DNA of 64,000 nucleotides from assembly GCF_054482595.1 (NCBI RefSeq), contig NZ_CM137008.1; one strand, given 5' to 3'. The position numbers were made by a program, and so were the translations under genes. The notes under the pieces are model-generated. The model worked only from the letters and a program-made list of their open reading frames with translations. It was not told the DNA's origin and searched no databases. Every line of letters starts with the position of its first letter. Positions within the stretch are counted from its first letter, which is position 1. Positions 10,379-53,575 of this stretch are shown one piece after another.

Positions 10379-13246
<2,868 letters not shown>

Positions 13247-19033: not shown

Positions 19034-19038
19034 TAAAA

Positions 19039-19305: not shown

Positions 19306-19445
19306 TGAAAGTCCTTAACTCTCTGCGTACCGCAAAAGAACGCCATCCAGACTGTCAGATTGTGAAGCGAAAAGGACGGCTGTATGTGATTTGTAAATCT
19401 AATCCACGTTTTAAGGCCGTTCAGGGTCGTAAGAAAAAACGTTGA
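19305..19445 (+). CDS. ykgO: 50S ribosomal protein L36 paralog (zinc-independent)
   Basis: 46-aa [46 protein letters not shown]; start overlaps the ykgM stop (ATGATG); not in ORF track. Confidence 0.9.
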
Positions 19446-19496
19446 TTTAAAATTCGACGAATTAACGATATTTGTCTGATTAATAATCAGACCGGA

Positions 19497-19535
19497 TTAA
19501 TGTTGGTGTATTTATTACACCAGCATTAATTTTCC
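19497..19535 (+). terminator. Rho-independent terminator after ykgM-ykgO
   Basis: ttaatgttggtgta...tacaccagcattaa hairpin followed by tttt; a second smaller hairpin at 19474-19493. Confidence 0.55.
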
Positions 19536-20460
19536 TGGGGATGTATCTTCCTGTTCATTTAAGGTCAACTGCCTGACGTTTCTCTCCGAATATTCCATTA
19601 TATTAATGTTGACTTGTTGACCAGCTTCGCCCCTGTATGCTGGCATCAACCCTCTTTTAGACTGAACACGCCACTCAGTTTCCTCCCTTTGCGACGCAGC
19701 CTGCATTTACACTCAAACTGTTAAGATGATAAATGTGGTAAATCTGTTGGTACTGACATAAAAACGTTTACGCCACAGGAACGGCCTGATCCACCGGTAA
19801 CCCCATCGCCGACGTTCGAGTGCCAGTTAGAGTAACGCGCACAGATAACTGCACTCAGTGCCCTGGCAAAGAGGCCATCGTTCCTGTGACAACTGGCAGT
19901 CTTCGTTTAACTTCACTTAATTTGGCTCTTAGGGGGCTTACCGGACAGATGAAATACTTACACCTGTTTAATTTTTCATCACTTATTGGGATGAACACCC
20001 ATAACCATTTTGTGCGGCATGTTAATCCATTAAAACACCTTACTGATTGGCAAATCATCTTTAATTATGACTCATGATAGTTTTATATTCTATTTCTTAT
20101 CATTTAAACTTGTTTTTTTACTAGTCCATTACACAACACATTAAGACTATTCCTAACACCTCAGGGCAAAGTTCCTGGCTAATATAAAATGCAAGTAAGA
20201 ATTGAACGATATATTGCCAATAACCTTATGAAACTGAATGTCTTTTTCTTCTTATCAAAAAAGCAATATTTTCATTTTTTGTAAATATTGACTTAACCAT
20301 GGAATTCCTTTTTCGTTCACATATTGACACTGATCGGGAAAAAAACATAAATTTAAGCCCAATCGAAAATAATTAAACTTAATCTCGTTTAACCTATATT
20401 GATATGTGCTACGTATCTTATTTACTTCCGATTTACTAAAGAAACTGAATGTACCTGTAA

Positions 20461-21072
<612 letters not shown>

Positions 21073-21146
21073 ACTCCAGACAAGTTAGTTTTAAAAAATG
21101 ACTCACCGGGACTTCATGTCCTCAATTCAACTCGGGAAGAAAAGCA

Positions 21147-21734
21147 ATGAAAAAAAAGGTTCTGGCAATAGCTCTGGTAACGGTGTTTACCGGTATAGGT
21201 GTGGCGCAGGCTGCTGACGTAACAGCTCAGGCTGTAGCGACCTGGTCAGCAACAGCCAAAAAAGACACCACCAGTAAGCTGGTTGTGACGCCACTCGGTA
21301 GCCTGGCGTTCCAGTATGCCGAAGGCATTAAAGGTTTTAACTCACAGAAAGGTCTATTTGACGTGGCTATCGAGGGTGACTCAACGGCTACCGCCTTTAA
21401 ACTGACCTCACGTCTTATCACCAACACATTAACCCAGTTGGATACCTCAGGTTCCACACTGAATGTGGGCGTGGATTATAACGGCGCGGCAGTCGAAAAA
21501 ACTGGCGATACCGTGATGATCGATACCGCCAACGGCGTACTGGGCGGCAACCTTAGCCCGCTGGCTAACGGTTACAATGCCAGCAATCGTACCACCGCAC
21601 AGGATGGTTTCACCTTCTCCATCATCAGCGGCACCACCAATGGTACCACCGCAGTAACCGATTACAGCACTCTACCGGAAGGCATCTGGAGCGGCGACGT
21701 TAGCGTACAGTTCGACGCGACCTGGACCAGTTAA
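21147..21734 (+). CDS. ecpA: E. coli common pilus major pilin EcpA (MatB)
   Basis: 195-aa ORF; signal peptide [22 protein letters not shown]; sequence recognised as EcpA. Confidence 0.9.
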
Positions 21735-21749
21735 TCTCTCTGATGTACC

Positions 21750-21775
21750 AGCAGGGGTAGCCCCCCTGCTTTATT
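21750..21775 (+). terminator. Hairpin after ecpA (intra-operon attenuator)
   Basis: agcaggggtagcccccctgct then ttatt; consistent with pilin being over-expressed relative to downstream genes. Confidence 0.5.
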
Positions 21776-21791
21776 CCTGGACGGAATTGTT

Positions 21792-22460
21792 ATGAAAAAG
21801 CACCTTCTGCTTCTCGCTCTGCTGTTATCCGGAATATCTCCGGCCCAGGCGCTGGATGTCGGCGATATATCATCGTTTATGAACAGTGACAGCAGCACGC
21901 TGAGCAAAACGATCAAAAACAGTACCGACAGTGGTCGCCTCATCAATATCCGTCTCGAACGGCTCTCTTCACCGCTTGACGACGGGCAGGTTATCGCAAT
22001 GGACAAGCCGGATGAGTTGCTACTCACTCCCGCCAGCTTGCTGCTACCCGCCCAAGCCAGCGAAGTGATCCGCTTCTTCTATAAGGGACCAGCAGATGAA
22101 AAAGAGCGCTACTACCGCATTGTCTGGTTTGATCAGGCCCTCAGTGATGCGCAGCGCGATAATGCCAACCGCAGCGCTGTGGCCACTGCTTCCGCCCGCA
22201 TCGGCACCATTCTGGTCGTCGCACCCCGCCAGGCAAACTACCACTTTCAGTACGCCAACGGCTCCCTGACAAATACAGGAAATGCGACGCTGCGGATCCT
22301 CGCCTACGGCCCCTGCCTGAAAGCCGCCAATGGTAAAGAGTGTAAAGAGAATTACTACCTGATGCCGGGCAAGTCGCGTCGTTTTACCCGCGTGGACACG
22401 GCGGATAACAAAGGACGGGTTGCACTTTGGCAGGGTGATAAGTTCATTCCCGTGAAATAG
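21792..22460 (+). CDS. ecpB: Pilus periplasmic chaperone EcpB
   Basis: 222-aa ORF with signal peptide; position in ecp operon. Confidence 0.85.
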
Positions 22461-22485
22461 ATAGCTGTGCAGATGGATAACGACA

Positions 22486-25011
22486 ATGCCTTTACGACGG
22501 TTCTCCCCAGGACTGAAAGCCCAGTTTGCCTTCGGCATGGTCTTTTTGTTCGTTCAGCCCGATGCCAGCGCTGCTGACATAAGTGCGCAGCAAATAGGTG
22601 GGGTGATTATTCCGCAGGCCTTCAGTCAGGCGCTTCAGGACGGCATGAGCGTCCCGCTCTATATTCATCTCGCCGGTAGTCAGGGTCGCCAGGACGATCA
22701 GCGAATCGGCAGCGCTTTTATCTGGCTGGATGATGGACAGCTACGCATCCGGAAAATACAGCTGGAAGAGAGTGAAGATAACGCCAGTGTCAGCGAACAA
22801 ACTCGACAGCAGCTGATGGCTCTGGCAAACGCCCCGTTCAATGAGGCCCTTACCATCCCCCTGACTGACAACGCGCAGCTGGATCTCAGCTTGCGCCAAC
22901 TGCTGCTGCAGCTGGTGGTCAAGCGCGAAGCGCTGGGCACTGTACTACGCTCACGTAGCGAAGACATCGGGCAGTCCAGTGTTAACACCCTCAGCAGTAA
23001 TCTGAGCTATAACTTCGGCATCTATAACAACCAGTTGCGTAACGGCGGGAGTAACACATCCAGCTATCTGTCGCTGAATAACGTTACTGCACTGCGCGAA
23101 CATCATGTGGTGCTCGACGGCTCGCTGTACGGGATCGGTAGCGGTCAACAGGACAGTGAATTATATAAAGCGATGTATGAACGCGATTTTGCCGGTCACC
23201 GATTTGCCGGTGGAATGCTCGACACCTGGAACTTGCAGTCCTTAGGGCCGATGACCGCCATTTCAGCAGGGAAGATTTACGGCCTTTCCTGGGGAAACCA
23301 GGCCAGCTCCACCATCTTCGACAGCAGCCAGTCAGCCACGCCAGTGATCGCCTTTTTACCGGCGGCGGGCGAAGTACATCTCACCCGTGATGGGCGGTTA
23401 CTAAGCGTTCAGAACTTCACCATGGGCAATCATGAAGTGGATACCCGGGGTCTACCGTACGGTATTTACGATGTGGAAGTTGAGGTGATCGTTAACGGTC
23501 GCGTGATCAGCAAACGCACTCAACGGGTCAATAAGCTGTTTAGCCGGGGGCGCGGCGTCGGTGCACCACTGGCGTGGCAGATATGGGGCGGTAGCTTTCA
23601 TATGGATCGCTGGTCGGAAAACGGGAAAAAGACGCGACCAGCTAAAGAGAGTTGGCTGGCAGGTGCCTCGACCTCCGGCTCACTGAGTACGCTTAGCTGG
23701 GCGGCAACGGGATATGGATACGATAATCAGGCGGTGGGTGAAACCCGTCTGACGCTGCCGCTTGGGGGAGCGATCAACGTTAACCTGCAAAATATGCTGG
23801 CCAGTGACAGCTCATGGAGCAACATCGCCAGCATCAGCGCCACTCTACCGGGAGGCTTTAGTTCGCTGTGGGTTAACCAGGAAAAAACCCGCATTGGCAA
23901 TCAATTGCGACGTAGCGATGCCGACAACCGTGCAATCGGCGGCACACTCAACCTGAACTCACTGTGGTCGAAGCTGGGCACATTCAGCATCAGCTACAAT
24001 GATGACCGCCGTTACAACAGCCATTATTACACGGCAGATTACTATCAAAATGTCTACAGCGGTCCCTTTGGTTCGCTTGGCCTGCGGGCCGGTATTCAGC
24101 GCTATAACAACGGCGACAGCAACGCCAATACAGGGAAATATATCGCTCTCGATCTCTCGCTACCACTGGGCAACTGGTTTAGCGCAGGGATGACTCATCA
24201 AAACGGCTACACCATGGCAAACCTGTCAGCACGCAAGCAGTTTGATGAAGGGACCATTCGCACTGTTGGTGCCAATCTGTCACGAGCCATCTCCGGCGAT
24301 ACCGGTGATGACAAAACTCTCAGTGGTGGGGCGTATGCACAGTTCGACGCTCGCTACGCCAGCGGAACGCTGAACGTCAATAGCGCGGCGGACGGCTACG
24401 TCAATACCAATTTAACCGCCAATGGCAGCGTCGGCTGGCAGGGTAAAAACATTGCTGCCAGCGGGCGGACTGATGGCAACGCTGGGGTGATATTCAACAC
24501 CGGGCTGGAGGACGACGGTCAGATCAGCGCCAAAATCAACGGGCGGATTTTCCCGCTTAACGGCAAGCGTAACTATCTCCCGCTCTCTCCCTATGGAAGA
24601 TATGAGGTGGAGTTACAGAACAGCAAAAACTCACTCGACAGTTACGATATCGTCAGCGGTCGCAAAAGTCATCTGACTCTCTATCCAGGCAATGTCGCTG
24701 TCATTGAGCCAGAGGTGAAGCAGATGGTTACCGTCTCCGGTCGTATCCGTGCGGAAGACGGCACACTGCTGGCTAACGCACGGATTAACAACCATATCGG
24801 CCGAACCCGAACCGATGAAAACGGCGAGTTTGTCATGGACGTGGATAAGAAATACCCCACTATCGATTTTCGCTACAGTGGCAATAAAACCTGCGAAGTG
24901 GCACTGGAACTCAACCAGGCGCGCGGTGCCGTCTGGGTCGGTGATGTGGTCTGCAGCGGCCTCTCATCGTGGGCGGCGGTGACGCAGACAGGAGAAGAGA
25001 ATGAGAGTTAA
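22486..25011 (+). CDS. ecpC: Pilus outer-membrane usher EcpC
   Basis: 841-aa ORF; signal peptide; size and position typical of usher. Confidence 0.85.
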
Positions 25012-26644
25012 CCTACTGATAGCGATGATAATCTTTGCGCTAATCTGGCCAGTAACTGCGCTCAGAGCGGCAGTGAGCAAAACAACCTGGGCGGATGCAC
25101 CGGCACGCGAGTTTGTGTTTGTCGAAAACAACTCAGACGACAACTTTTTCGTCACTCCTGGCGGGGCGCTGGATCCGCGCCTGACCGGTGCCAACCGCTG
25201 GACCGGTTTAAAATACAATGGTTCAGGAACCATCTATCAGCAAAGCCTCGGCTACATTGATAACGGTTACAACACCGGCCTTTATACCAACTGGAAGTTT
25301 GATATGTGGCTGGAAAATTCACCAGTTTCATCTCCTTTAACTGGCTTGCGCTGCATCAACTGGTACGCTGGGTGTAATATGACCACCAGTCTTATCCTGC
25401 CGCAAACCACCGACACCAGTGGATTTTATGGCGCGACGGTGACCAGCGGCGGCGCGAAGTGGATGCACGGCATGTTGTCAGACGCGTTTTACCAGTATCT
25501 GCAACAAATGCCCGTCGGCAGCAGCTTTACAATGACCATCAATGCCTGCCAGACCTCTGTGAACTATGACGCCAGCAGCGGCGCACGCTGTAAGGATCAG
25601 GCCTCCGGCAACTGGTATGTTCGCAACGTCACCCATACGAAAGCAGCAAACCTACGGTTGATAAATACCCACTCGCTGGCGGAAGTATTTATCAACAGCG
25701 ACGGAGTACCGACTCTGGGCGAAGGGAACGCCGACTGCCGGACGCAAACCATCGGCAGCCGTTCAGGATTAAGTTGTAAGATGGTTAACTATACCCTGCA
25801 AACAAACGGACTCAGCAACACCTCAATCCATATATTCCCGGCGATCGCCAACTCGTCGTTAGCCTCGGCCATCGGGGCGTACGATATGCAGTTCAGTCTG
25901 AATGGCAGTTCATGGAAACCGGTGAGCAATACTGCCTATTACTACACCTTCAACGAGATGAAGAGCGCAGACTCGATCTATGTTTTCTTCTCGAGCAACT
26001 TCTTTAAGCAGATGGTGAACCAGGGAATCAGCGATATCAACACCAAAGATCTATTCAACTTTCGCTTTCAGAACACCACATCACCGGAGTCTGGCTGGTA
26101 TGAATTTTCTACCTCCAACACGCTGATTATCAAACCCCGTGATTTCAGCATCAGTATTATCTCCGATGAATATACTCAGACACCGTCGCGGGAGGGATAT
26201 GTTGGCAGCGGCGAGTCGGCACTCGATTTCGGCTATATCGTAACCACCAGCGGTAAAACAGCTGCCGACGAAGTGCTGATCAAGGTGACCGGACCCGCGC
26301 AGGTGATTGGCGGGCGCTCCTATTGTGTCTTCAGCTCCGATGACGGTAAGGCGAAAGTACCGTTCCCGGCGACGCTTTCCTTTATTACCCGCAACGGAGC
26401 TACAAAAACCTACGATGCCGGGTGCGATGATAGCTGGCGGGATATGACCGATGCGCTGTGGCTGACCACACCGTGGACTGATATCTCTGGCGAAGTGGGG
26501 CAGATGGATAAGACCACAGTCAAATTTTCGATTCCAATGGATAACGCCATTTCGCTGCGTACGGTAGATGATAACGGCTGGTTTGGCGAAGTCAGCGCTT
26601 CAGGAGAAATTCATGTTCAGGCGACGTGGCGTAACATTAACTAA
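25001..26644 (+). CDS. ecpD: Pilus tip adhesin EcpD
   Basis: 547-aa ORF with signal peptide; 11-bp overlap with ecpC. Confidence 0.85.
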
Positions 26645-27323
26645 GGCCCTGCTGACAGCGGTCTGTATGCTGGCGGCACCTTTGACACAGGCGATTTCGG
26701 TCGGCAATCTGACATTTTCGCTGCCGTCCGAGACTGACTTTGTCAGCAAACGTGTAGTGAATAACAACAAAAGCGCACGGATATACCGTATTGCCATCAG
26801 TGCTATTGATAGCCCGGGCAGCAGTGAATTGCGCACCCGACCGGTGGATGGTGAACTGCTTTTCGCCCCCCGCCAGCTGGCGTTGCAGGCTGGTGAGAGC
26901 GAGTATTTTAAATTTTACTATCATGGTCCACAGGATAACCGCGAGCGCTACTACCGGGTCTCATTTCGCGAGGTCCCCACTCGTAACCTGACAAAACGCA
27001 GCCCTACCGGCGGTGAGGTCAGCACGGAGCCGGTGGTGGTGATGGATACCATTCTGGTAGTACGACCACGTCAGGTTCAGTTTAAATGGTCCTTCGACAA
27101 GGTGACAGGAACGGTAAGTAACACCGGCAACACATGGTTTAAGCTACTGATTAAGCCAGGATGTGATTCGACCGAAGAGGAAGGCGATGCCTGGTATCTA
27201 CGTCCGGGAGACGTGGTTCATCAGCCTGAGTTACGTCAGCCGGGGAATCATTATCTGGTCTATAACGACAAATTCATTAAGATTAGCGATTCCTGTCCGG
27301 CTAAGCCCCCTTCGGCGGACTGA
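26613..27323 (+). CDS. ecpE: Second pilus chaperone EcpE
   Basis: ORF 26568..27323; likely start [14 protein letters not shown] (236 aa); paralogous to EcpB (shared YYRVSF/YYRIVWF-type chaperone motifs). Confidence 0.85.
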
Positions 27324-27635
27324 TACTTATCCATCGGTCGAGGGAAGAATTCCACCTCAGAGACTCAAAAAACGTTTAAATGATGTGGAAGCGATCGTCA
27401 ATGTCACCTGTAACGATGGGCTTTCTCATATGCACACCATAGTGTTCAGGAGACACAGAAAGGTATCAGGCTGCCTGCTAACGAGTGGTTTATTCACGAA
27501 ATAGTACGTAAAATCGGTAACGGCTGGAAATCATTCAATACTCACACTATCGAAAGTACACCAGCCAACCGCGGTACGTTCTTACATACGATGTACCGCT
27601 GTTCTCTTTACGATTTATAGCTGTACTGGTGAATT

Positions 27636-27965
27636 ATGAGCAATCTGAATCCATGCATGACGTGTGGTGCCTGTTGTGCATTTTTCCGCGTCTCTTTTTA
27701 CTGGGCCGAAGCCGACGATGCTGGCGGTACCATTCCCGCCAGGCTCACTGAACAAATATCCCCTTTTCACCGATGCATGAGCGGTACCAATCAGAAAAAC
27801 CCCCGATGTATTGCCCTTGCAGGAACCCCAGGCAAAAATGCCTGCTGCACGATATATAAAAATCGATCGTCCACGTGCAGAGAATTCGCCATGTCTGGTG
27901 AGAACGGAGAAGTCAATGAGGCTTGCAATCGTGCAAGGGCTAAATACGGGCTGACACCGTTATAA
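27636..27965 (+). CDS. ykgJ: YkgJ-family Cys-rich (Fe-S/Zn-binding, UPF0153) protein
   Basis: 109-aa [14 protein letters not shown] and CTIY...CREF cysteine clusters. Confidence 0.8.
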
Positions 27966-27987
27966 ATATACAATAATTAATTGCACT

Positions 27988-28020
27988 GCCCCGCCAGCGA
28001 TAATAGCGGGGCTTCGTTTT
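27988..28020 (+). terminator. Rho-independent terminator after ykgJ
   Basis: gccccgccagcgataatagcggggc followed by ttcgtttt. Confidence 0.6.
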
Positions 28021-28169
28021 CAGGGACAACAAAACCCGAAACTTCTTGTATTTGCCAGCAACAATGCCTCTCTTCTGTAGCGTTCTTCGGATCTACATCA
28101 TCCTGAAGTAGCGCGATATACTCACTGACTATCTGAATCAGAATATAAAAAGCAATGTTTTTAACCTAT

Positions 28170-28199
28170 AAAAATGGCGCTGTATTTGCGCCATTTTTA
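28170..28199 (-). terminator. Rho-independent terminator after yagU
   Basis: aaaaatggcgctgtatttgcgccattttt; symmetric A/T runs. Confidence 0.6.
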
Positions 28200-28211
28200 T
28201 CATTCAATGCA

Positions 28212-28826
28212 TTATCTGTTTGAGCCTAAGGGGATCTCAGGGTCTGGCTCATGAGTAATTCTGTTTCGTAAATCTCTGCGAATAATTTCAATGGACCAGA
28301 ACCAGACTAAATGTCCAAAAATTTCAGAAACATTCTCATACCACGGGAGATCAAAAAGAGGTGGTGTCAGTCCCATGAGAGGGAATGAAATCATATGAAC
28401 AAAAAGTTGGGCTAAAGCACCTGCCAGTAAGCCCTGCCAGAGTTTAATTTTTGGAAATACTTCAGCGACCACACAATAACCGACAGCAAACACTATCGAA
28501 AAGATAATGTGCGTAACACCAACCCAGTTAAAGATATGCCCGGCAAAGGTATAAACAGCCGCATTGGGATCTGTCAGCCCCAGCCAGTCTCGAAGAAAAA
28601 TATACGGAGGATTGAGAAAATTACGCGAGCAATCAATTTGCCCAGCAGCCCTGATTAATGATTCCGGGCCACACGCTGCATTAAACATATCCACCGGGCT
28701 ACGTGGAGGCAATGGAACTTCAGCCCCCCACTTCACAAATGCGGAAACAACGCCAGCAATCAGCCCAATGAATGCAGCAAGACCATAACGTCTGCGGTTC
28801 GGTGGAGTTTGTTCAAATATATTCAT
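28212..28826 (-). CDS. yagU: Inner-membrane DUF1440 protein YagU
   Basis: 204-aa ORF; multiple hydrophobic helices; position next to pao operon. Confidence 0.8.
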
Positions 28827-29243
28827 ATCTACCCTGCTTGTACCATTATGTTATACACCTCTTTAGGAGTATTCATAAAACAAGGCGAATGTAAAGAACT
28901 GTATTGTTTTGTATAACAAGATGGTTGTCTAATCGCCAAAGAATATAAGCACCATCATTTCTCCCTATTTTTATATTAGAAGTGACATAGATTTGCAGGG
29001 TGATGCAGAGCTGACAATCACAGGTTTCCTTATCGGTTTTTGCATCGTACAACTCAAGCAATAAACCAGCTCCCATCATCATCAACATCCCGGCGAACAT
29101 GAATTTATTAGCCGGGCTCATAGCTGCATTCGCGTTTTAAGAATAATCCTCCTGCTGTCGCCGACTATGCTTAACGTTTAAAAAAGCATCAGCACTCTCG
29201 CAACGCACTCTTATTTTCCCCTTTAGAATACCGGAGGCCTGGT

Positions 29244-29933
29244 ATGAGCAACCAAGGCGAATACCCCGAAGATAATCGGGTTGGGAAGCACGAGCCGCAC
29301 GATTTTAGTTTGACCCGTCGCGATCTGATTAAAGTGAGCGCCGCAACGGCGGCGACCGCCGTGGTTTATCCTCATTCTACGCTTGCGGCAAGCGTTCCGG
29401 CAGTTACACCCGCGCCAGAGATAATGCCCCTGACACTTAAGGTGAACGGCAAAACCGAGCAGCTTGAGGTGGATACCCGAACCACGCTACTGGACGCTTT
29501 GCGTGAAAATCTGCATTTGATCGGTACCAAGAAAGGTTGCGATCACGGACAGTGCGGAGCCTGTACCGTGCTGGTCAATGGTCGCAGGCTTAATGCCTGC
29601 CTGACGCTTGCAGTCATGCATCAGGGGGCCGAGATCACCACCATTGAAGGCCTGGGTTCACCAGATAATCTTCACCCCATGCAGGCGGCCTTTATCAAGC
29701 ATGATGGCTTCCAGTGCGGCTACTGCACCTCCGGGCAAATTTGCTCATCAGTAGCGGTGCTAAAAGAGATTCAGGACGGCATTCCCAGTCACGTCACGGT
29801 CGATTTGGTTTCCCCTCCAGAAAGAACTGCCGATGAGATCCGTGAACGTATGAGCGGCAACATCTGTCGCTGTGGTGCATACGCTAACATCCTTGCCGCC
29901 ATTGAAGACGCTGCGGGGGAGATAAAATCATGA
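29244..29933 (+). CDS. paoA: Periplasmic aldehyde oxidoreductase 2Fe-2S subunit PaoA
   Basis: 229-aa ORF; Tat signal ([20 protein letters not shown]); two [2Fe-2S] Cys clusters ([19 protein letters not shown]). Confidence 0.9.
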
Positions 29934-30886
29934 AGGCGTTTACCTATGAACGAGTGAACACCCCGGCCGAGGCGGCACTTAGCGCTCAGCGCGTACCCGG
30001 CGCAAAATTTATCGCGGGCGGGACCAATCTGCTGGACCTGATGAAGCTGGAAATTGAAACGCCCACCCACCTTATCGATGTGAACGGGCTCGGGCTCGAT
30101 AAGATTGAAGTGACCGACGCGGGTGGGCTGCGCATCGGCGCACTGGTACGGAACACCGACCTGGCGGCTCACGAGCGCGTGCGTCGTGATTACGCGATAC
30201 TCTCCCGCGCCCTGCTCGCTGGCGCGTCTGGTCAGTTACGCAATCAGGCAACCACCGCAGGTAATCTGCTCCAGCGCACGCGCTGCCCCTATTTTTACGA
30301 CACCAATCAGCCCTGCAATAAGCGCCTGCCCGGGAGCGGCTGCGCGGCGCTTGAAGGCTTTAGCCGTCAGCACGCGGTGGTAGGCGTAAGCGAAGCCTGC
30401 ATTGCCACCCATCCGAGCGATATGGCGGTCGCAATGCGGTTGCTGGATGCGGTGGTGGAAACCATCACGCCGGAGGGAAAGACTCGCAGTATCACACTGG
30501 CTGATTTTTATCACCCACCGGGGAAAACGCCGCACATTGAAACCGCCCTGCTTCCCGGTGAGCTTATCGTTGCGGTGACGTTACCTCCGCCGCTCGGCGG
30601 AAAACATATTTACCGTAAGGTGCGCGATCGCGCCTCCTACGCCTTTGCCCTGGTATCGGTCGCGGCGATTATTCAGCCTGACGGCAGCGGGCGCGTCGCG
30701 CTGGGCGGAGTAGCACATAAGCCCTGGCGCATTGAGGCTGCGGATGCTCAACTATCCCAGGGGGCGCAGGCCGTATATGACGCGCTGTTCGCCAGCGCCC
30801 ATCCCACCGCTGAAAACACCTTTAAACTCCTGTTGGCGAAGCGAACGCTTGCCTCCGTACTGGCTGAAGCGAGGGCACAAGCATGA
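29930..30886 (+). CDS. paoB: Aldehyde oxidoreductase FAD-binding subunit PaoB
   Basis: 318-aa ORF; FAD-binding CO-dehydrogenase-medium-subunit-like; translationally coupled to paoA and paoC. Confidence 0.9.
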
Positions 30887-33081
30887 AATTTGATAAACCC
30901 GCAGGGGAAAACCCGATCGATCAGCTGAAGGTTGTCGGTCGTCCCCATGACCGCATCGACGGACCGCTGAAAACTACCGGCACGGCACGCTACGCCTACG
31001 AATGGCATGAAGAATCCCCCAACGCCGCCTATGGCTATATCGTCGGTTCCGCCATTGCCAAAGGACGCCTCACCGCCCTTGATACGGACGCCGCGCAAAA
31101 AGCGCCGGGCGTACTGGCTGTCATTACCGCCAGTAACGCCGGGGCACTCAGTAAAGGCGACAAAAACACCGCCAGGCTGTTAGGCGGCCCCACTATTGAG
31201 CACTATCATCAGGCCATTGCGCTGGTAGTGGCCGAGACCTTCGAACAGGCGCGAGCGGCGGCCTCGCTGGTGCAGGCGCACTATCGCCGTAATAAAGGAG
31301 CTTACTCCCTGGCGGACGAAAAACAGGCCGTCAGTCAGCCGCCGGAAGACACGCCCGACAAAAACGTCGGTGACTTTGACGGGGCTTTCTCCTCCGCTGC
31401 GGTGAAGATTGATGCTACCTACACGACCCCGGATCAGAGCCATATGGCGATGGAGCCGCATGCCTCGATGGCCGTCTGGGATGGAAATAAGCTTACTCTC
31501 TGGACCTCAAATCAGATGATTGACTGGTGCCGCACCGATCTGGCAAAAACGCTGAAAGTGCCCGTGGAGAATGTGCGTATTATCTCCCCGTATATCGGCG
31601 GAGGGTTTGGCGGCAAGCTGTTCCTGAGAAGCGATGCGCTGCTGGCAGCCCTCGCCGCCCGAGCGGTGAAACGTCCGGTTAAAGTGATGCTCCCCCGCCC
31701 CACTATTCCCAATAACACCACGCACCGCCCCGCCACCCTTCAGCACTTGCGTATCGGTGCCGACCAGAGCGGGAAAATCACCGCTATCTCACATGAAAGC
31801 TGGTCCGGAAACCTGCCCGGCGGCACGCCGGAAACGGCGGTACAGCAAAGCGAATTACTCTACGCCGGGGCAAACCGTCATACCGGCCTGCGGCTCGCCA
31901 CGCTTGATTTGCCGGAAGGGAACGCCATGCGTGCGCCCGGCGAAGCCCCCGGTCTGATGGCGCTCGAAATCGCGATCGACGAACTGGCGGAAAAAGCGGG
32001 CATCGATCCCGTCGAGTTTCGCATCCTGAATGACACTCAGGTTGACCCCGCCGACCCGACGCGCCGCTTCTCTCGCCGTCAGCTTATCGAGTGCTTGCGC
32101 ACCGGAGCGGATAAATTTGGCTGGAAGCAGCGCAACGCCACACCCGGACAGGTGCGCGACGGGGAGTGGCTGGTCGGCCACGGTGTTGCGGCGGGCTTTC
32201 GCAATAATCTGCTGGAAAAATCGGGTGCTCGGGTTCACCTCGAACAAAACGGCACCGTTACCGTAGAAACGGACATGACCGACATTGGCACCGGCAGCTA
32301 CACCATTCTGGCCCAGACGGCAGCGGAAATGCTTGGCGTACCGCTGGAGCAGGTTGCGGTTCACCTCGGCGATTCCAGTTTCCCGGTTTCTGCGGGTTCT
32401 GGTGGACAATGGGGCGCGAATACCTCCACCTCCGGCGTTTACGCCGCCTGTATGAAGCTTCGCGAAATGATTGCCTCGACAGTCGGGTTTGATCCTGAGC
32501 AGTCGCAGTTTGCCGACGGCAAGATTACCAACGGTACCCGAAGCGCCACGCTACATGAGGCCACCGCAGGCGGCAGACTGACAGCGGAAGAGAGCATTGA
32601 ATTCGGAACACTGAGCAAGGAGTACCAGCAGTCGACCTTTGCCGGGCATTTTGTGGAGGTCGGCGTGCATAGCGCGACGGGAGAAGTTCGGGTCCGGCGT
32701 ATGCTCGCTGTGTGTGCTGCAGGACGCATCCTGAATCCGAAAACTGCACGCAGCCAGGTCATTGGCGCAATGACTATGGGCATGGGCGCGGCACTGATGG
32801 AGGAGCTGGCGGTGGATGACCGTTTGGGCTACTTCGTTAATCACGATATGGCGGGGTATGAGGTGCCGGTCCATGCGGATATCCCAAAACAGGAGGTGAT
32901 TTTCCTGGATGATACCGACCCCATATCCTCCCCGATGAAGGCCAAAGGTGTCGGTGAGCTGGGCCTGTGCGGCGTGAGCGCGGCTATCGCCAACGCGGTG
33001 TATAACGCCACCGGTATTCGGGTACGGGATTATCCCATCACTCTGGATAAGCTGCTCGATAAGCTGCCGGATGTGGTTTAA
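30883..33081 (+). CDS. paoC: Aldehyde oxidoreductase molybdopterin subunit PaoC
   Basis: 732-aa ORF; xanthine-dehydrogenase-family molybdopterin-binding domains. Confidence 0.9.
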
Positions 33082-33090
33082 GGAGGAACA

Positions 33091-34047
33091 ATGTCATACC
33101 CGCTTTTTGACAAAGACGAACACTGGCATAAGCCAGAGCAGGCGTTTCTCACCGATGACCACCGGACCATTCTGCGCTTCGCCGTAGAGGCGCTAATGTC
33201 CGGTAAAGGAGCGGTGCTGGTGACGCTGGTGGAGATACGCGGCGGCGCGGCGCGCCCGCTCGGGGCGCAGATGGTGGTGCGCGAAGATGGTCGTTACTGC
33301 GGTTTTGTCTCTGGCGGCTGCGTGGAGGCCGCTGCCGCTTTTGAAGCGCTGGAGATGATGGGCTCAGGCTGCGAACGCGAAATTCGCTATGGCGAAGGTT
33401 CGCCGTGGTTTGACATCGTTCTGCCCTGCGGCGGTGGGATCACGCTGACGCTCCATAAACTACGCTCGGCACAGCCTCTGCTCGCCGTGCTGAACCGCCT
33501 GGAACAGAGAAAACCGGCGGGGCTGCGCTACGATCCGCAAGCACAATCGTTGGTGTGCCTGCCCACGCAAACCCGAACGGGCTGGAATCTCAATGGCTTT
33601 GAGGTGGGGTTCAGGCCATGCGTCAGGCTGATGATTTACGGACGTTCTCTTGAGGCGCAGGCAACCGCGAGTCTTGCAGCAGCCACAGGCTATGACAGCC
33701 ATATCTTCGATCTTTTTCCGGCCTCAGCCAGCGCTCAGATCGATACCGATACGGCGGTCATTTTGCTGTGCCATGATCTCAACCGAGAGCTGCCAGTGTT
33801 GCAGGCCGCGCGAGAGGCAAAACCCTTTTATCTCGGCGCATTGGGCAGCTATCGAACCCACACGTTACGTCTGCAAAAGCTCCACGAGCTGGGATGGTCC
33901 AGGGAGGAGACAGCGCAAATCCGGGCACCCGTCGGGATATTTCCCAAAGCCCGGGATGCGCATACTCTGGCACTCTCCGTGCTGGCAGAAGTCGCCTCTG
34001 TACGTCTCCATCAGGAGGAGGATTCATACCTGCCCCCGTCGTCCTGA
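33091..34047 (+). CDS. paoD: XdhC-like molybdenum-cofactor insertion chaperone PaoD
   Basis: 318-aa ORF downstream of paoC. Confidence 0.85.
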   Translation: MSYPLFDKDEHWHKPEQAFLTDDHRTILRFAVEALMSGKGAVLVTLVEIRGGAARPLGAQMVVREDGRYCGFVSGGCVEAAAAFEALEMMGSGCEREIRYGEGSPWFDIVLPCGGGITLTLHKLRSAQPLLAVLNRLEQRKPAGLRYDPQAQSLVCLPTQTRTGWNLNGFEVGFRPCVRLMIYGRSLEAQATASLAAATGYDSHIFDLFPASASAQIDTDTAVILLCHDLNRELPVLQAAREAKPFYLGALGSYRTHTLRLQKLHELGWSREETAQIRAPVGIFPKARDAHTLALSVLAEVASVRLHQEEDSYLPPSS

Positions 34048-34224
34048 TCCTTGCGGCCGGGCGTGGGAAGCGCTTTCTCACCTCCGGGGAAATACCATAA
34101 ATTAAGAGAAAAATCTGCAGTAGCCGTTTTAGAAAATCACCTAAATCGTTTAAAAGAGCGCCCTACCCATAGTGGGTGCTCATCGCCTTGTGTAACTTAT
34201 TCAGCAACGCGCGCCCTCGCCGGA

Positions 34225-35418
34225 CTAAAGCGCACCGGCCTTCTGGCGTGCGGTAACAAAGGTCAGTACGCCCGCGCAAAGGAGCAGCACACTACTCATG
34301 GCAAACGTACTCTGCCAGCCAAGGCGGTCAAACACGATGCCTCCTGCCGTTGATCCAAGGGCGATTGAGAGCTGAATCACCGCGACCATGAGACCGCCTC
34401 CGGCTTCGGCGTTGTCAGGCAACGTACGCGCAATCCATGTCCACCATCCGGTTGGCGCGGCGGTGGCCAGCATGCCCCAGAGTCCTAACAGCAGCGAGAC
34501 CGTCCAGACGTGATGCCCGGTAAGCATCAGACCGATGGCAATGACGGCCATCAGTCCGGGTATGGCCATCAGCGTGGGGTAGAATTTTCTGTTGAGAAAT
34601 GTCGAAACAACCAGCGTGCCAATAAAACCGGCCACGCCGATAATCAGCAAAATCAACGACAAGCCTAAGGAATTAACCCGTGTCACCGACTCCAGAAACG
34701 GGCGCACATAGGTGAATAGCGCAAACTGCCCCATGAAAAACAGGCCACAAGCTATCATGCCGACCACAACCATGCGGCGGCTAAATAAGCGGAATACCGC
34801 GCCACATGACGTGTGGCTTTTATTCGCATCCATGCTGGGCAGACTAATGCACTGCCAGATAAAGGCGACAACCGCCATGGGCACCAGGCACAAGAAAGCG
34901 CCTCGCCATCCGACCGTAGCCCCCAGATAGCTTCCCAGCGGCGCGGCCACGACCGTCGCCAGCGCATTACCGGCGTTGAAAATCGCCAGCGCACGCGTGA
35001 CCTGATGCTGCGGCACCAGACGAATCGCCGTTGCCGCTGACATAGACCAGAATCCGCCAATGGCCACACCAATCATCGCACGACCGACCATATACATCAG
35101 ATAACTGGTAGCCAGCGCAATAATAAGCCCCGATACGGCCATCAGAACCGTCATCCCCAGCAGCAGGAACTTACGATTCATCTTTCCAGCTAGCGTTGAA
35201 AGCGTCAGGCTGGTCAGAACCGCCAGCGCACCGGAGATAGCAATCCCCTGCCCTGCAAGCCCCTCCGTCACGCCTAAATCGCGGGTAATCGGCGTGAGCA
35301 GGCTGACGGGCATAAATTCAGAAGCAATCAGCACAAACACGCACAGGGTCATGGCAAAAATACCGCCCCAGTATGCGCGCTGATGATGAGGTGATAGTGT
35401 TTGGCTTAGTGTCGACAT
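34225..35418 (-). CDS. MFS transporter (12-TM)
   Basis: 397-aa ORF; highly hydrophobic, MFS-like loop motifs. Confidence 0.8.
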   Translation of the reverse strand: MSTLSQTLSPHHQRAYWGGIFAMTLCVFVLIASEFMPVSLLTPITRDLGVTEGLAGQGIAISGALAVLTSLTLSTLAGKMNRKFLLLGMTVLMAVSGLIIALATSYLMYMVGRAMIGVAIGGFWSMSAATAIRLVPQHQVTRALAIFNAGNALATVVAAPLGSYLGATVGWRGAFLCLVPMAVVAFIWQCISLPSMDANKSHTSCGAVFRLFSRRMVVVGMIACGLFFMGQFALFTYVRPFLESVTRVNSLGLSLILLIIGVAGFIGTLVVSTFLNRKFYPTLMAIPGLMAVIAIGLMLTGHHVWTVSLLLGLWGMLATAAPTGWWTWIARTLPDNAEAGGGLMVAVIQLSIALGSTAGGIVFDRLGWQSTFAMSSVLLLCAGVLTFVTARQKAGAL

Positions 35419-35493
35419 AGTGAAATTTCACAAAGATCAGGATAAAAGCCACCAGCCTATGGCCGGTGGCTTTGCATCAATTCAGGAGAGGTT

Positions 35494-36630
35494 TTATTTC
35501 AGTTTGGTCTGGAAAAATTGTTCGAACTTCGCGAAAGGTATTTTTCCGGCCACGTTATCGTACAGGTCCACGTGATTTGCCCCTGGTACCACCACCAACT
35601 CTTTGTCTTTACTGCCAACCGCCTTGTAAGCATCTTCAGCAAAATAGCGTGAATGCGCTTTCTCACCGGTCACAATCAGCGTCGGGATGGTGATTTCACT
35701 GGCGTATCTCAACAGCGGCATATTCATAAATGACAGCGGCATCGTTGCCGTCCACGCCCCGGTAGAGTTAACGGAACGTTCGTGGAAGCCGCGCGGCATG
35801 CGATAGTAGTCAAAGAACTCTTTCAGTACCGGATGAGGATTTGCCGGCAGCGTTTCTGGCAGAATGCGCTCGCCCGCACTGACCTTGCCGTTGCTGTCGA
35901 CATTAATATCATGACCACCGTGAGCAAACGTTCCGCTCTGCGCATCCTTCCAGCGCTGTTCATTCAGATATTGCAGAACAGCACGACGGTCGGCGGTAGA
36001 ATAACGGTCTTTGCCATCCCCCACACCATGACCCATCGCCCGGCTCATGTCATACATCACGCTGGTAGCTACCGCTTTAACGCGGGTATCCATCGCCACG
36101 TCGTTCAGCGCCATGCCGCCCCAGCCACAAATACCGAGCAGCCCGATACGGTTGCGGTCTACCTCTTTTTGCAGCCCTAAGAAATCCACCGCCGCGCTGA
36201 AATCTTCAGTGTTGATATCCGGTGAGGCGACGTTTCGCGGATAGCCGCCGCTTTCCCCGGTGTAAGAAGGATCGAACGCCAGGGTAACAAACCCTCGTTC
36301 CGCCAGCGTCTGCGCATACAGGCCGCTGGATTGCTCTTTCACCGCGCCAAATGGCCCACTGACCGCAATCGCCGCCAGCTTGCGATCGCCACGGTCTTTA
36401 GGCAGGTAAAGATCGCCCACTAAGGTGATGCCATATCGGTTCGGGAACGAGACTTTACGGTGATCGACTTTCTGGCTCTCGGCGAACGTTTTATCCCATT
36501 TATCTGTCATGGACACAGGGGCATTAGGATTGGTTGAATCAGCATAACTCATTGTCGTGACTCCACTTAATGATGCGAAAAGCAGCATGGTCGGCATCGC
36601 GGTTTTTAGCGTTCGGGTGAAGGCTTTCAT
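35494..36630 (-). CDS. Secreted alpha/beta hydrolase (dienelactone-hydrolase-like)
   Basis: ORF 35494..36651; signal peptide MKAFTRTLKTAMPTMLLFASLSGVTTMSYA; LGICGWGG nucleophile elbow; paralog of 15806..16726; 75 bp upstream of the MFS gene. Confidence 0.75.
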   Translation of the reverse strand: MKAFTRTLKTAMPTMLLFASLSGVTTMSYADSTNPNAPVSMTDKWDKTFAESQKVDHRKVSFPNRYGITLVGDLYLPKDRGDRKLAAIAVSGPFGAVKEQSSGLYAQTLAERGFVTLAFDPSYTGESGGYPRNVASPDINTEDFSAAVDFLGLQKEVDRNRIGLLGICGWGGMALNDVAMDTRVKAVATSVMYDMSRAMGHGVGDGKDRYSTADRRAVLQYLNEQRWKDAQSGTFAHGGHDINVDSNGKVSAGERILPETLPANPHPVLKEFFDYYRMPRGFHERSVNSTGAWTATMPLSFMNMPLLRYASEITIPTLIVTGEKAHSRYFAEDAYKAVGSKDKELVVVPGANHVDLYDNVAGKIPFAKFEQFFQTKLK

Positions 36631-36816
36631 AAAAATCCCCATAAAAAACAACAGAGAGATACAGGTTTCCGACGGACAACGCTGCGGTGCTTTACTTTGA
36701 TGGGGTCATTATAGTGAGCAGAATTAGTGCTGATTAGGGGGCGATTAATGCTAAGATTAATACCATATTGTTATAAATTAATGCGGAGATTGCCGGCATG
36801 AAGGGGGGATGTTTCA

Positions 36817-37701
36817 ATGGCGAAAAGGGAGAACTACAACGAGCTGTACCTGTTTATGCAGGTGGTGCGGGAAGGCAGCTTTACCGCAGCGGCTCAGCGG
36901 CTGGGTCTTGCTCAGTCAGGAGTCAGCCGTTCTGTTCGCGAGCTTGAAGAAAGGCTGGGTGTCCAGCTGCTAGTGCGCACCACGCGTAAACTGTCGCTGA
37001 CACAAGCAGGCGAGCAGCTCTACCAGAAGACGGCATCTGGATTTGAAATGTTAGATCTTGGGCTTGCCACACTGGCGCACTATCGAGAGACGCCCTCCGG
37101 CACGGTGCGTATCAATGCCAGCCAGCACGCGATTGATAAATGCCTGCTGCCAAAGCTGGCGGTATTTAAACAGCGATATCCTGATATCCGGCTTGAACTG
37201 ATAAATGAGAGCCGGTTCGTCGATATCATCGAGGAAAGATTCGATGCAGGTGTCCGCCTGGGGCCTGAAGTCGGCCAGGGTATGGTCGCGGTACGCATCA
37301 CGCCCGATATGGAGATGGCAATTGTGGGGACTCCGGAACATTTTCGTCGCTATGGTTTTCCGCAAACTCCGGCGGATTTAAAGGCGCATCCCTGTATCGC
37401 CTATCAGTTTGCCGACGGCAGCGTATACCAGTGGGAACTCAATCAGGATGATAAAAAAATCACTCATCGCCCTGAAGGACAATGGGCCCTATCCGACAGC
37501 TATATGGAAGCAGAAGCCGCCCGGCTGGGCCTCGGATTGGCCTATGTTCCTGTTGAACTGGTCGCGGATGATTTAGAACACGGTAAGCTTATCAGGGTGT
37601 TGCAGCGTTACAGCCTGCGAATGGAGGGATTGTTTCTCTATTACCCTCATCGCAACGTCTCCCCCGCCCTGCGGATGGTCATTGATACATTGAAAATCTG
37701 A
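36817..37701 (+). CDS. LysR-family transcriptional regulator
   Basis: 294-aa ORF divergent from the hydrolase-MFS pair; HTH FTAAAQRLGLAQSGVSRSVRELEERLGVQLLVRTTR. Confidence 0.85.
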   Translation: MAKRENYNELYLFMQVVREGSFTAAAQRLGLAQSGVSRSVRELEERLGVQLLVRTTRKLSLTQAGEQLYQKTASGFEMLDLGLATLAHYRETPSGTVRINASQHAIDKCLLPKLAVFKQRYPDIRLELINESRFVDIIEERFDAGVRLGPEVGQGMVAVRITPDMEMAIVGTPEHFRRYGFPQTPADLKAHPCIAYQFADGSVYQWELNQDDKKITHRPEGQWALSDSYMEAEAARLGLGLAYVPVELVADDLEHGKLIRVLQRYSLRMEGLFLYYPHRNVSPALRMVIDTLKI

Positions 37702-37926
37702 ACGTTAATAACGACCGACTCTTCACTGTGCAAAATTGTGTCAGGTAATCCCTCTGCGTTCAATTCCAGGGTCTGCTTTGAGCGAGAAAGATCAGACTTA
37801 TCTGTACAAGGGGACTATCCAGCAATGGAGATCATCCAAAAGAAAAAACCACCTGGCTCCCCTCGACAACCTTAATCCGGGCATTTAGCCTCAATCAACA
37901 TTTTCATATCTGTCAGGTTACTTCAT

Positions 37927-38200
37927 TATGAAAACCGATCAATATCGTTGTTTTTGTTGCAACAGTAGAATACGCGTATTTATCCCTCCATTTCTATTAA
38001 TAACGGCAATAAACTGTTCATTTCACTGATATTTAAAATATGCATCCTTTTCAAGCTGTTCAGCGGCATAAGAAAACGTATTAAATATGAATTCGACGAT
38101 TTAACCATTTCTGTCTGATTGGTAATCATCTGTGATTAATGCTGGTCTATTGATTACGCCAGCATTAACCGCTTAGGGATGTATTCTTCCTGTTGATATA
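37927..38200 (+). repeat. Degraded paralog of the ykgR-ykgM-ykgO locus
   Basis: 37940-38040 aligns to 18625-18725 (about 90% identity by eye); 38050-38085 resembles the last codons of ykgO; 38090-38200 resembles the terminator region 19450-19560; the ykgR-like frame is disrupted. Confidence 0.6.
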
Positions 38201-38403
38201 CAGCCCTCGAAAAAGAGAGAAAATAAAACTGTGTCCAATATTACTCTACCACTCCAGACCGAAGCATCGGTAGAATTAGCAGAACGACTGGTACAATAGA
38301 TTGGGATAGCGTCATTTGTCAGGTATTCCATTGCCTGACAAATGACAATTTTGAGTCAATAGACGTGCTTCTTGATCATGTCTTAAAAATTATACCATGA
38401 GCC

Positions 38404-38676
38404 TTATGAAGCATCATTTTTACTGACTGGTGTTAATTTTGCTATCATATAAACTCTGTTCTTAAAAAACGCGCCCAGAATTTTATATGATTTCCCTTGT
38501 TTTTCTGCCTGTAAAGAAATTTCTTTTTCAGTGCTGTCAATGGTTGAACCGACGGCAGTAATCGTTTTGGCGACGCTACTGAATGATAATAAAGACAGTG
38601 TAACAACAACAATTAAAGAACAGATAGTATTCACGCTAATTCTCCTGACAATTGAGAGGATGAGTTTTATATACAT
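38404..38676 (-). CDS. Small secreted DUF1471 (BhsA/YdgH-like) protein
   Basis: 90-aa ORF; hydrophobic signal segment then motif TIDSTEKEISLQAEKQGKSYKI typical of the family; compare rclB. Confidence 0.55.
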   Translation of the reverse strand: MYIKLILSIVRRISVNTICSLIVVVTLSLLSFSSVAKTITAVGSTIDSTEKEISLQAEKQGKSYKILGAFFKNRVYMIAKLTPVSKNDAS

Positions 38677-38846
38677 AGGTATTAAACATGAGTCATATTT
38701 ACCCCAAGAGAAAATACTCCTTCTGTAATTAAACCTTCATCTCCTTCGGGGTGAGCAATACATAATACATCTTGCTATGAAAACACAGGGATATATAAAT
38801 CTTCCTTCTGACCTATTTAATAAAACGTGAATGTAAAAATTATTCT

Positions 38847-39088
38847 TCAGTTTGCAGATGCAGTGGGTCTGATGGTAATTTCGGTTGTATCAACGCTTTC
38901 GGGAGATTCAATAATATGCCTTACAGCACGGGCAATATCCGCGGGTTGAAGTGCAACAGAACGGTAGGCGTCCATTGCCTTCATGGTTTCCACATGGGTA
39001 ATGGTTGAAGCCAGTTCACTTTCGACAACGCCAGGATTTACGCAGGTCACACGGATTTTCGAGCTTTCTTGCCGTAAGCCATCAGAAA
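38847..39088 (-). pseudogene. 3' fragment of a short-chain dehydrogenase/reductase gene
   Basis: Frame encodes only an SDR-like C-terminal tail (NPGVVESELA...TEITIRPTASAN); the N-terminal Rossmann part is absent and its position is occupied by the next fragment. Confidence 0.45.
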
Positions 39089-39091
39089 TAG

Positions 39092-39526
39092 CCCGTACTG
39101 CAAATCAGGCAGCGTGAAATGGTCGTTGCCTCTCCCTCCTATCTCGCAGCCAACAGCACACCTGTTCATCCGCGTGAACTTGTGAATCATAAGTGTATCG
39201 GCTGGCGTCAATCCCCGGATGTTGCGCCTTATCGCTGGCCATTTGAAGAAAACAGGAGAGCTTTCGACCTTGCGATTGAACCGCAGATTACGACTAATGA
39301 TCTGCGTCTGATGTTGAGGCTGGCTCTTGCCGGCGGAGGAATAACAATTGCCACTCAGGAAACTTTCAGGCCATATATTGAAAGCGGTAGGCTTGTATCT
39401 CTGCTTGATGACTTTCTTCCACAATTTCCGGGCTTCTATCTGTATTTCCCACAGCGTCGCAATATTGCACCAAAGCTCCGCGCCCTGATTGACCACGTCA
39501 AGGAATGGCGGCAGCAATTGGCTTAA
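39092..39526 (+). pseudogene. 3' fragment of a LysR-family regulator gene (effector domain only)
   Basis: Open frame from 39092; encodes MVVASPSYLA...FPGFYLYFPQRR (LysR C-terminal domain) with no HTH; abuts the SDR fragment head-to-head. Confidence 0.6.
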
Positions 39527-53479: not shown

Positions 53480-53575
53480 ATTCGCGGGCTCGTAGGCATG
53501 ATAAGACGCGCCAGCGTCGCATCAGGCACCTGCGTACAACTGCCGGATGCGGCGTAAACGCCTTATCCGTCCTAC
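53480..53575. repeat. REP elements
   Basis: tcgtaggcatgataagacgcgccagcgtcgcatcaggc...gccggatgcggcgtaaacgccttatcc. Confidence 0.85.

Follow-up and report, generated by a model that had tools for sequence, protein, structure and literature searches.

Why does an Escherichia coli chromosome carry, near the tRNA gene thrW, pieces of a locus that is complete 19 kb away? The 64,000-nucleotide stretch analysed here (hereafter the window; contig NZ_CM137008.1 of RefSeq assembly GCF_054482595.1) contains a functional ykgR–ykgM–ykgO module, in which ykgR encodes a small membrane protein and the Zur-regulated ykgM–ykgO operon (ykgMO) encodes the zinc-independent ribosomal protein paralogs L31B and L36B. 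An earlier note on this DNA had pointed to a degraded second copy of the module around position 38,000. We found that positions 37932-38200 are a remnant of a second copy (hereafter the relic), and that a 19.3-kb structural polymorphism comprising ykgMO, ecp and pao has one of its ends here. On balance we favour the view that the relic is not a simple decayed duplicate, and that it derives from a resident single-copy ykgR that was cut at codon 12 when a 19-kb block was joined to it.

Gene names and positions in the window were taken from the annotation of E. coli XH990 (NZ_CP019359.1), to which positions 14924-49999 are 99.99% identical; positions 37000-39000 are 100% identical to several strains. 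The functional copy of the module served as the reference and is composed as follows.

18577-19565, plus strand: functional reference module, from ykgR through the hairpins (to 19530)
18577-18678, plus strand: functional ykgR (XH990 annotation)
19012-19031: Zur-box-like palindrome (palindrome scan)
19042-19305, plus strand: ykgM (XH990 annotation)
19305-19445, plus strand: ykgO (XH990 annotation)

When the window was compared against itself by BLAST, positions 37932-38048 matched 18610-18726 at 107 of 117 positions (91.5% identity, ungapped, E = 2e-41), and positions 38048-38200 matched 19409-19561 at 119 of 158 (75% identity, E = 3e-20). Both matches are on the same strand and collinear, with an offset of 19,322 bp between the ykgR repeats, which bears out the proposed second copy about 19 kb away. 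The two segments abut at 38048, where the counterpart of 18727-19408 (683 bp) is missing. This missing part holds the Zur-box promoter, all of ykgM and codons 1-35 of ykgO. The relic is composed as follows.

37932-38000, plus strand: ykgR remnant, codons 12-33 and the TAA stop (within the 117-bp match, to 18610-18678; also in RefSeq)
38001-38048, plus strand: 48 nt homologous to the non-coding stretch 3′ of functional ykgR (18679-18726)
38046-38051: deletion junction CCT/TTT, where the BLAST segments meet at 38048
38049-38084, plus strand: ykgO remnant, 11 C-terminal codons and the stop (FQAVQRHKKTY), aligned to 19410-19445
38085-38200, plus strand: homolog of the ykgO-downstream region (about 115 nt, 75% identity to 19446-19561), with one surviving hairpin

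The earlier note had placed a match of about 90% to the 3′ half of ykgR at 37940-38040, within some 10 bases of the boundary measured here, and had recognised the hairpin region of ykgO at 38090-38200. The dozen ykgO codons that it placed at 38050-38085 are real, with a correction to 11 codons and a stop at 38049-38084. Its description of the ykgR-like frame as broken does not hold. Codons 12-33 run without internal interruption to the stop, and it is the 5′ end that is cut off: unrelated sequence stands in place of codons 1-11, the start codon and the upstream region, an in-frame TGA is directly 5′ of the remnant (37929-37931), and no in-frame ATG, GTG or TTG was found further downstream. The translation of the remnant, KPINIVVFVATVEYAYLSLHFY, scored 44.6 bits against the NCBIfam model NF041474 (YkgR), above the cut-off of 40 and over profile positions 14-33 only, compared with 78.1 bits over positions 1-33 for functional YkgR. 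Compared with ykgR (b4671; NF041474/PF28062), the relic thus keeps 22 of 33 codons, the stop, 48 nt of downstream sequence (91.5% identity) and a predicted hydrophobic segment, whereas it lacks the start, the first 11 codons and the upstream region and shows two non-synonymous changes, I to T and F to S. A complete 33-codon YkgR frame with start and ribosome-binding site is not present. The 48 nt at 38001-38048 show two differences from the functional copy in the window allele, and two to three across the alleles compared. The tail of the relic has the same order and orientation as the ykgM–ykgO operon, and its main hairpin is recognisable. In contrast to a type B L31/L36 operon, it has neither the Zur box nor ykgM, and only 11 codons of ykgO are left.

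The relic is ordinary in kind, a paralogous pseudogene remnant with a significant collinear match, two gene remnants in order and lost coding capacity, and its ykgR part is annotated as a pseudogene already. In RefSeq, the Prokaryotic Genome Annotation Pipeline (PGAP) labels 37932-38000 'small membrane protein YkgR, incomplete, missing N-terminus' in strains such as XH990 and O157:H7. This pseudogene label was present in every relic-bearing record that we opened, except for one that calls the ykgR part a 'hypothetical protein'. The ykgO tail and the hairpin have no annotation in RefSeq, and a literature search returned nothing describing this relic.

A match of this size might come from a short dispersed repeat, such as a repetitive extragenic palindromic (REP)-like or mobile-element fragment unrelated to the ykg locus, and the earlier note had named a generic repeat as the finding that would overturn its interpretation. 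Inverted repeats do occur in the region, and REP- and naRNA4-type repeats are found elsewhere in the window. We nevertheless give this explanation practically no chance, since both segments are collinear with ykgR–ykgO and contain two gene remnants in the right order and frame. The only non-REP internal repeats of the window are these two pairs, without further homologs; the rest are REP-type elements past 52 kb and one palindrome. Across 5,084 genomes, the relic sequence occurs in at most two places per genome, which are always these two loci.

How widespread the relic is among E. coli strains, and what takes its place elsewhere, can be read from its neighbours and from the block that separates it from the functional copy.

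36817-37701: LysR1, a gene for a LysR-family regulator, adjoining the relic on the left
38404-38682, minus strand: gene for a 90-amino-acid hypothetical protein, the next gene to the right of the relic
18727-37931, plus strand: block between the two ykgR 3′ repeats (XH990 gene map; repeat offset 19,322 bp)

The block contains the ykgM promoter, ykgM, ykgO, a ykgL-like open reading frame (ORF), ecpRABCDE, ykgJ, yagU and paoABCD, and, at its right end, genes for an MFS transporter and an alpha/beta hydrolase followed by LysR1. To the right of the hypothetical gene are fragments of an SDR gene and of a second LysR-family gene (LysR2), then the tRNA-Thr gene thrW and proA. The relic, counted as present when at least 80% of a 321-bp query was matched, was found in 912 of 5,426 complete E. 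coli genomes (about 17%), and the region is missing in 83%. The 3′ flank of LysR1 was detected in 916 genomes and, wherever the right flank was also present, the relic was always in between. An empty site, with the two relic flanks joined directly, was not found in any complete E. coli genome. Every relic allele examined had the same 5′ boundary and the same junction, although pairs of alleles diverge by as much as about 8% over the ykgR part and about 4% over the tail. Therefore, the relic is older than much of the diversification of E. coli. In K-12, which lacks the relic, paoD is directly followed by yagP, a 3′ fragment of LysR2, and in O157:H7 both the SDR gene and LysR2 are intact. The relic-less majority form was therefore derived by deletion. 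Like the pseudogene scars known from the thrW integration hot spot (e.g. K-12 yagP, next to the CP4-6 prophage), the relic is situated between paoD and thrW, a variable interval in which deletions and island insertions have truncated genes. It differs from them in that it is paralogous to part of a chromosomal locus at a distance of 19 kb and is not a remnant of an island or prophage.

The earlier note had also proposed a search for an intact second ykgM/ykgO cassette near thrW in other genomes; there was none among the 5,426 complete genomes. Additional ykgM matches were rejected as second intact ykgMO copies, being loci split by insertion sequences or a lone ykgM in a urease island. This third ykgM (pB39_V; L006 4000-4263, also in L007) lies 3′ of ureG in the urease island of strains of the Shiga toxin-producing E. 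coli (STEC) type. It shows 80.7% nucleotide identity, has a GTG start, lacks ykgO, stands beside a hok/gef gene, and resembles neither the relic nor ykgR. Nor did we find any two-copy genome with a full-length right copy.

We built a chimeric query in which the left side of functional ykgR was joined in register to the right side of the relic, and it was matched contiguously in three complete E. coli genomes, 6EVA, wlxctx60 and GF4-3. The gene order in these genomes is fdeC, an oxidoreductase fragment, an intact ykgR, a junction and tail of the relic type, and the small hypothetical gene, followed by SDR, LysR2 and, further on, thrW and proA. The single-copy ykgR of all three encodes a protein identical to functional YkgR. 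What is missing, as a unit, is the 19.3-kb stretch that begins with the ykgM promoter and ends with LysR1, and neither ykgMO nor ecpA was found anywhere in the three chromosomes. In the proBA–phoE–crl region these genomes are 98.2-98.5% identical to the window, i.e. they are ordinary E. coli, and they fall into at least two lineages with 2% divergence between them. Further single-copy loci were reached through homologs of the small hypothetical protein. The same arrangement occurs in the draft genome L031, which is E. coli-like in proBA, and in two divergent Escherichia lineages (L020-23 and L028-30) that are 83-91% identical to E. coli and whose source names are Escherichia sp. KTE114 and Escherichia sp. 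MOD1-EC6842. The single-copy haplotype (KTE114, MOD1-EC6842, 6EVA, wlxctx60 and GF4-3) shares with the relic the right endpoint of the deletion, the lineage of tail and hairpin, the neighbours on the right and two derived synonymous sites. It differs in that its ykgR is complete, with promoter region and normal left neighbours, and is the sole copy, the block being missing at the locus. Thus, the ancestral duplicate with an internal deletion of about 700 bp that the earlier note envisaged fits the data in part. The 683-bp gap is there, and the history of a duplicate is put in doubt by the occurrence of the same junction in single copy with an intact ykgR.

We also sought ykgR in other genomes with a degenerate codon pattern, which matched in Escherichia only (E. 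albertii and Escherichia sp. E1V33) apart from two tiny contaminant-like contigs. One of these, from a Sulfoacidibacillus assembly, has 403 bp and the other, from an Alkalicoccobacillus assembly, 264 bp; both match the ykgR locus of E. coli at 98% identity and are almost certainly E. coli contamination. In Escherichia sp. E1V33 (L011 9826-10363), ykgR and 52 nt of functional-type downstream sequence are followed by an integrase remnant and a thrW att fragment; this is a separate deletion from the ykgM promoter through thrW.

Which form came first can be asked of the junction and of the few variable sites in ykgR. The junction reads CCTCTCCCTGCTT/TTCAAG in the divergent-lineage locus L020, in which 13 nt of functional-type sequence are kept, and CCTTTTTCTGCTT/TTCAAG in 6EVA and GF4-3, in which the same 13 nt contain C-to-T changes. 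In L031 and in all relics it reads CCTT/TTCAAG, which is 9 nt shorter, and therefore a locus with intact ykgR already has the relic-type junction. In GF4-3, TTCAAGCTG stands at the junction (L015, about 12290-12320) in three tandem copies; the junction is apparently prone to 9-nt slippage, which may account for the 9-nt gap between the junction forms. Within ykgR, derived ATC and ATA codons (both synonymous) are common to the single-copy genes and the relic, whereas functional copies and outgroups have ATT and (A/G)TT. A derived GTC is common to all functional E. coli copies compared, and GCG, TYC and CAC occur in the relic only and are missing from the single-copy genes. When about 5,000 genomes were searched for the functional allele most similar to the single-copy one, the best reached only 97.1% identity.

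A further clue is given by the limits of the module. Similarity between the functional module and E. albertii spans window positions 18462-19565 only, and the right homology limit is 19561 against the relic and 19565 against E. albertii. Beyond the right homology limit of the relic, the three flanks are mutually unrelated (z < 1). The ykgR–ykgM–ykgO module acts as a discrete unit of about 1.1 kb, and the E. albertii copy is situated among effector-like genes. The E. albertii contig ends 230 bp past the module, and its flank resembles neither E. coli flank. In Klebsiella and Enterobacter, ykgMO is beside ylaC–maa–hha–tomB–acrB, without ykgR. Because of this placement, these genera cannot polarise the arrangements of Escherichia. 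The placement of ykgMO thus differs between E. albertii, Klebsiella/Enterobacter and E. coli, and therefore the module has moved within the Enterobacteriaceae.

The pattern of fixed sites, the series of junctions, the lack of a full-length right copy and the coincidence of the boundaries at 19561 and 19565 suggest that the single-copy form is older than the relic. The opposite direction is that of an intragenomic duplication, in which a copy of the module was inserted between LysR1 and the DUF1471-like gene, lost 0.7 kb and, by a second deletion, its 5′ part; homologous recombination between the two copies would later have excised 19.3 kb and given rise to the single-copy form. The geometry suits such a history well, since direct repeats 19,322 bp apart would resolve to exactly the single-copy structure. 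Moreover, the single-copy E. coli are rich in deletions here, with the ykgE/F and rcl segment next to bet missing and pseudogene fragments upstream of ykgR, and they are devoid of ykgMO and ecpA altogether. However, the single-copy ykgR shows relic-lineage states from position 9 of the 117-bp repeat. From the ATC/ATA pattern, a crossover between the repeats would therefore be limited to the first 8 bp or else to upstream homology, which no extant relic has. The substitutions specific to the relic are missing from the single-copy genes, and some of the single-copy junctions are longer and more ancestral. In addition, two divergent Escherichia lineages have the single-copy form at this locus, and the coincidence of the boundaries is unexpected for an arbitrary endpoint of duplication or deletion. 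A duplication would thus need a full-length right copy that was not observed, together with several independent, oddly placed crossovers, and we consider it rather unlikely. Co-duplication of neighbouring genes was rejected, as the hydrolases next to the two copies share just 32% identity and are therefore old paralogs outside the repeat.

The two parts of the relic differ in identity, 91% and 75%. In a three-point comparison with E. albertii, the ykgR segment had one change on the functional E. coli branch and nine on the relic branch, whereas both branches of the tail were long (about 15 and 16-21 changes); even K-12 and the window are already about 5% apart in the ykgO-downstream tail. The contrast is due in part to the strong constraint on ykgR and the fast evolution of the tail, and for the rest to the behaviour of the single-copy loci, in which the ykgR segment follows the species and the tail follows the haplotype. 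All E. coli copies have ATT/ATA and GGCAATAAACTGTTC in the ykgR segment, while the tails of the relic, the single-copy loci and the divergent lineages group together against the functional tail. The tail lineage of the relic is about as distant from the functional E. coli tail as the E. albertii tail is. Such a pattern would be expected if sequence to the left of the ykgMO/deletion heterology is still exchangeable and the 150-bp tail is enclosed by heterology. From the three-point comparisons and the single-copy loci, gene conversion is not required for the contrast, although these data do not speak against it.

Under the favoured origin from a resident single-copy gene, the events would have been as follows. 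An ancestral ykgR–ykgM–ykgO module would first have lost ykgMO by a deletion of about 0.67 kb that left ykgR intact. This locus would have abutted the DUF1471-like gene, SDR, LysR2 and thrW, and may survive in single copy in the two divergent lineages and a few E. coli. An E. coli lineage would then have taken in DNA with an intact module and, downstream of it, ecp, ykgJ, yagU, pao, the MFS gene, the hydrolase gene and LysR1. Its ends may have been a homologous crossover upstream and an illegitimate join that connected a point 230 bp past LysR1 to codon 12 of the resident ykgR. The cut gene would thereafter have decayed, with three more substitutions among the changes, and most E. coli, K-12 included, would later have dropped the relic by a 5-kb deletion from paoD to the middle of LysR2. 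In homology-facilitated illegitimate recombination, one homologous crossover is combined with one illegitimate join, and the resident sequence past the join remains intact. By analogy, the proposed origin would fit this process, which would explain why the left copy has its whole 5′ end and the right copy is truncated at an arbitrary codon. It is possible, though we hold this only tentatively, that E. coli descends from ancestors without ykgM and ykgO at this locus and regained these zinc-sparing paralogs together with the E. coli common pilus (ECP) and periplasmic aldehyde oxidase genes in one block of about 19 kb, by recombination from a lineage in which they had been retained; the relic would then be the scar of that join.

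Several points weigh against this history. Its direction relies on about eight informative sites in 117 bp and on the junction, and a neighbour-joining tree of 900 bp from relic and single-copy haplotypes gave bootstrap values of 28-44% within E. coli. No complete E. coli genome was found in which LysR1 runs into non-relic sequence, as in the expected donor form. The absence of the block from the divergent Escherichia lineages was established for this locus only, and homologous recombination between the two repeats would give the same gross single-copy structure. The lack of function of the relic, in addition, is inferred from sequence.

The relic may nevertheless be useful as a marker. The 19.3-kb block was probably joined to the thrW-proximal region in an event that the relic records, and its fixed boundaries and junction connect the fdeC–thrW region in three states: one with two copies, one like that of K-12, from which the relic was lost, and one with a single copy and without the 19.3 kb. 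From these states follows an explanation, open to testing, for the present position of the block with the zinc-limitation ribosomal paralogs, the E. coli common pilus and the Pao aldehyde oxidase. If E. coli did regain the block in this way, its ykgMO–ecp–pao region was re-acquired, and the two locus forms are old structural haplotypes that still segregate in Escherichia. Natural E. coli isolates without ykgMO and ecp could also act as natural knock-outs. Anyone assembling, annotating or recombineering this region should also be aware of the 117-bp direct repeat.

Does the relic do anything today? The earlier note had suggested that retained hairpins could act as terminators or small RNAs. The Zur-box palindrome ATGTTATAACATAACA, allowing up to three mismatches, was found in the window only at 19012-19031 and not in the relic. 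Promoter and terminator scans of 37600-38800 gave nothing over background, save an unrelated hairpin at 38311-38346. With Rfam 15 at gathering score, no family matched 37900-38200 or 19446-19561, the matches in the window being IS009, two naRNA4 elements and tRNA-Thr. The RNA downstream of functional ykgO is predicted to form three hairpins (-36.3 kcal/mol, z = -6.5), the last of which, at 19496-19530, has a stem of 15-17 bp followed by TTTTCC. The relic folds at -27.7 kcal/mol (z = -3.2), and its sole kept hairpin is the counterpart of this last one.

38135-38169: surviving hairpin of the relic, an 11-bp stem plus 2 pairs (RNA folding)

The second clear hairpin and the T-run of the functional copy are absent from the relic. 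The surviving hairpin is followed by CCGCTTAGGG, which is not a U-tract, and a scan of 37927-38200 for intrinsic terminators found no site. Two stem pairs alternate in a compensatory manner between the functional E. coli, K-12 and E. albertii copies (C-G/U-A/U-G and G-C/A-U), and the second of these pairs is broken in the relic-lineage copies, six sequences being weak evidence for this. The covariation suggests that the hairpin at 19496-19530 of the functional copy belongs to a structured and conserved 3′ end of the ykgMO transcript, for which Rfam has no family.

It is in our view very improbable that the relic is a working element, whether as terminator or 3′ stabiliser of the LysR gene upstream, as a small RNA, or as the source of a new small protein from an ORF at 37928-38029. 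Its hairpin does fold better than shuffled sequences (z of about -3 to -4.5, on either strand) and is identical in most relic alleles, and the ORF has 33 codons with an ATG start and overlaps the ykgR fragment in a different frame. Against this, a U-tract is absent on both strands, the terminator scan is empty there, no Rfam family matches and the co-varying stem pair is broken. In F5446, an insertion with an AbiE toxin-antitoxin system runs through the hairpin and disrupts it. The ORF has no Shine-Dalgarno sequence and no Pfam match, its residues vary among alleles and its stop is lost in one of them. Finally, 83% of the complete E. coli genomes do without the region. Judging from the missing promoter, start codon, Zur box, U-tract and Rfam match, we infer that the relic does nothing today, and the suggested role of the hairpins finds no support, one of the two clear hairpins being lost and the survivor carrying a broken pair. 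As a sequence feature, the relic is probably an inert, half-annotated pseudogene scar.

The unrelated hairpin at 38311-38346 is strong, with a 15-bp stem followed by AATTTTGAGT, and is located 58 nt past the stop of the minus-strand hypothetical gene. It looks like a terminator, and is partly deleted in GF4-3. The protein of this gene (38404-38682, 90-92 amino acids) has an N-terminus like a signal peptide, and its length and start vary among strains (62-96 amino acids). Pfam gave no match for it and the match to BhsA was weak (E = 0.0014); homologs are named DUF1471 or DUF1471 domain-containing proteins by some sources. Next to it, at 38847-39526, a fragment of the SDR oxidoreductase gene on the minus strand meets the LysR2 fragment on the plus strand at 39104/39107. 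Since both genes are intact in O157:H7, a deletion of about 1 kb in the strain of the window has fused two pseudogenes.

On the left of the relic, the nearest homologs of LysR1 (36817-37701) outside E. coli are proteins with 88-90% identity in Kluyvera, Enterobacter, Raoultella and Chimaeribacter, and the patchy distribution of the MFS–hydrolase–LysR1 module is suggestive of transfer. Further upstream, positions 13593-14923 are a 1,331-bp insertion relative to XH990 with InsC/InsD ORFs of the IS2 type. It interrupts a gene for a LysR-family regulator, and an apparent 5-bp target duplication is seen at 14924-14928. The IS009 match to Rfam is at 28008-28206 in the ykgJ–yagU spacer, and the two naRNA4 elements, at 53495-53572 and 56824-56901, are REP-derived and both belong to a cluster of REP-like repeats at 52.7-56.9 kb.

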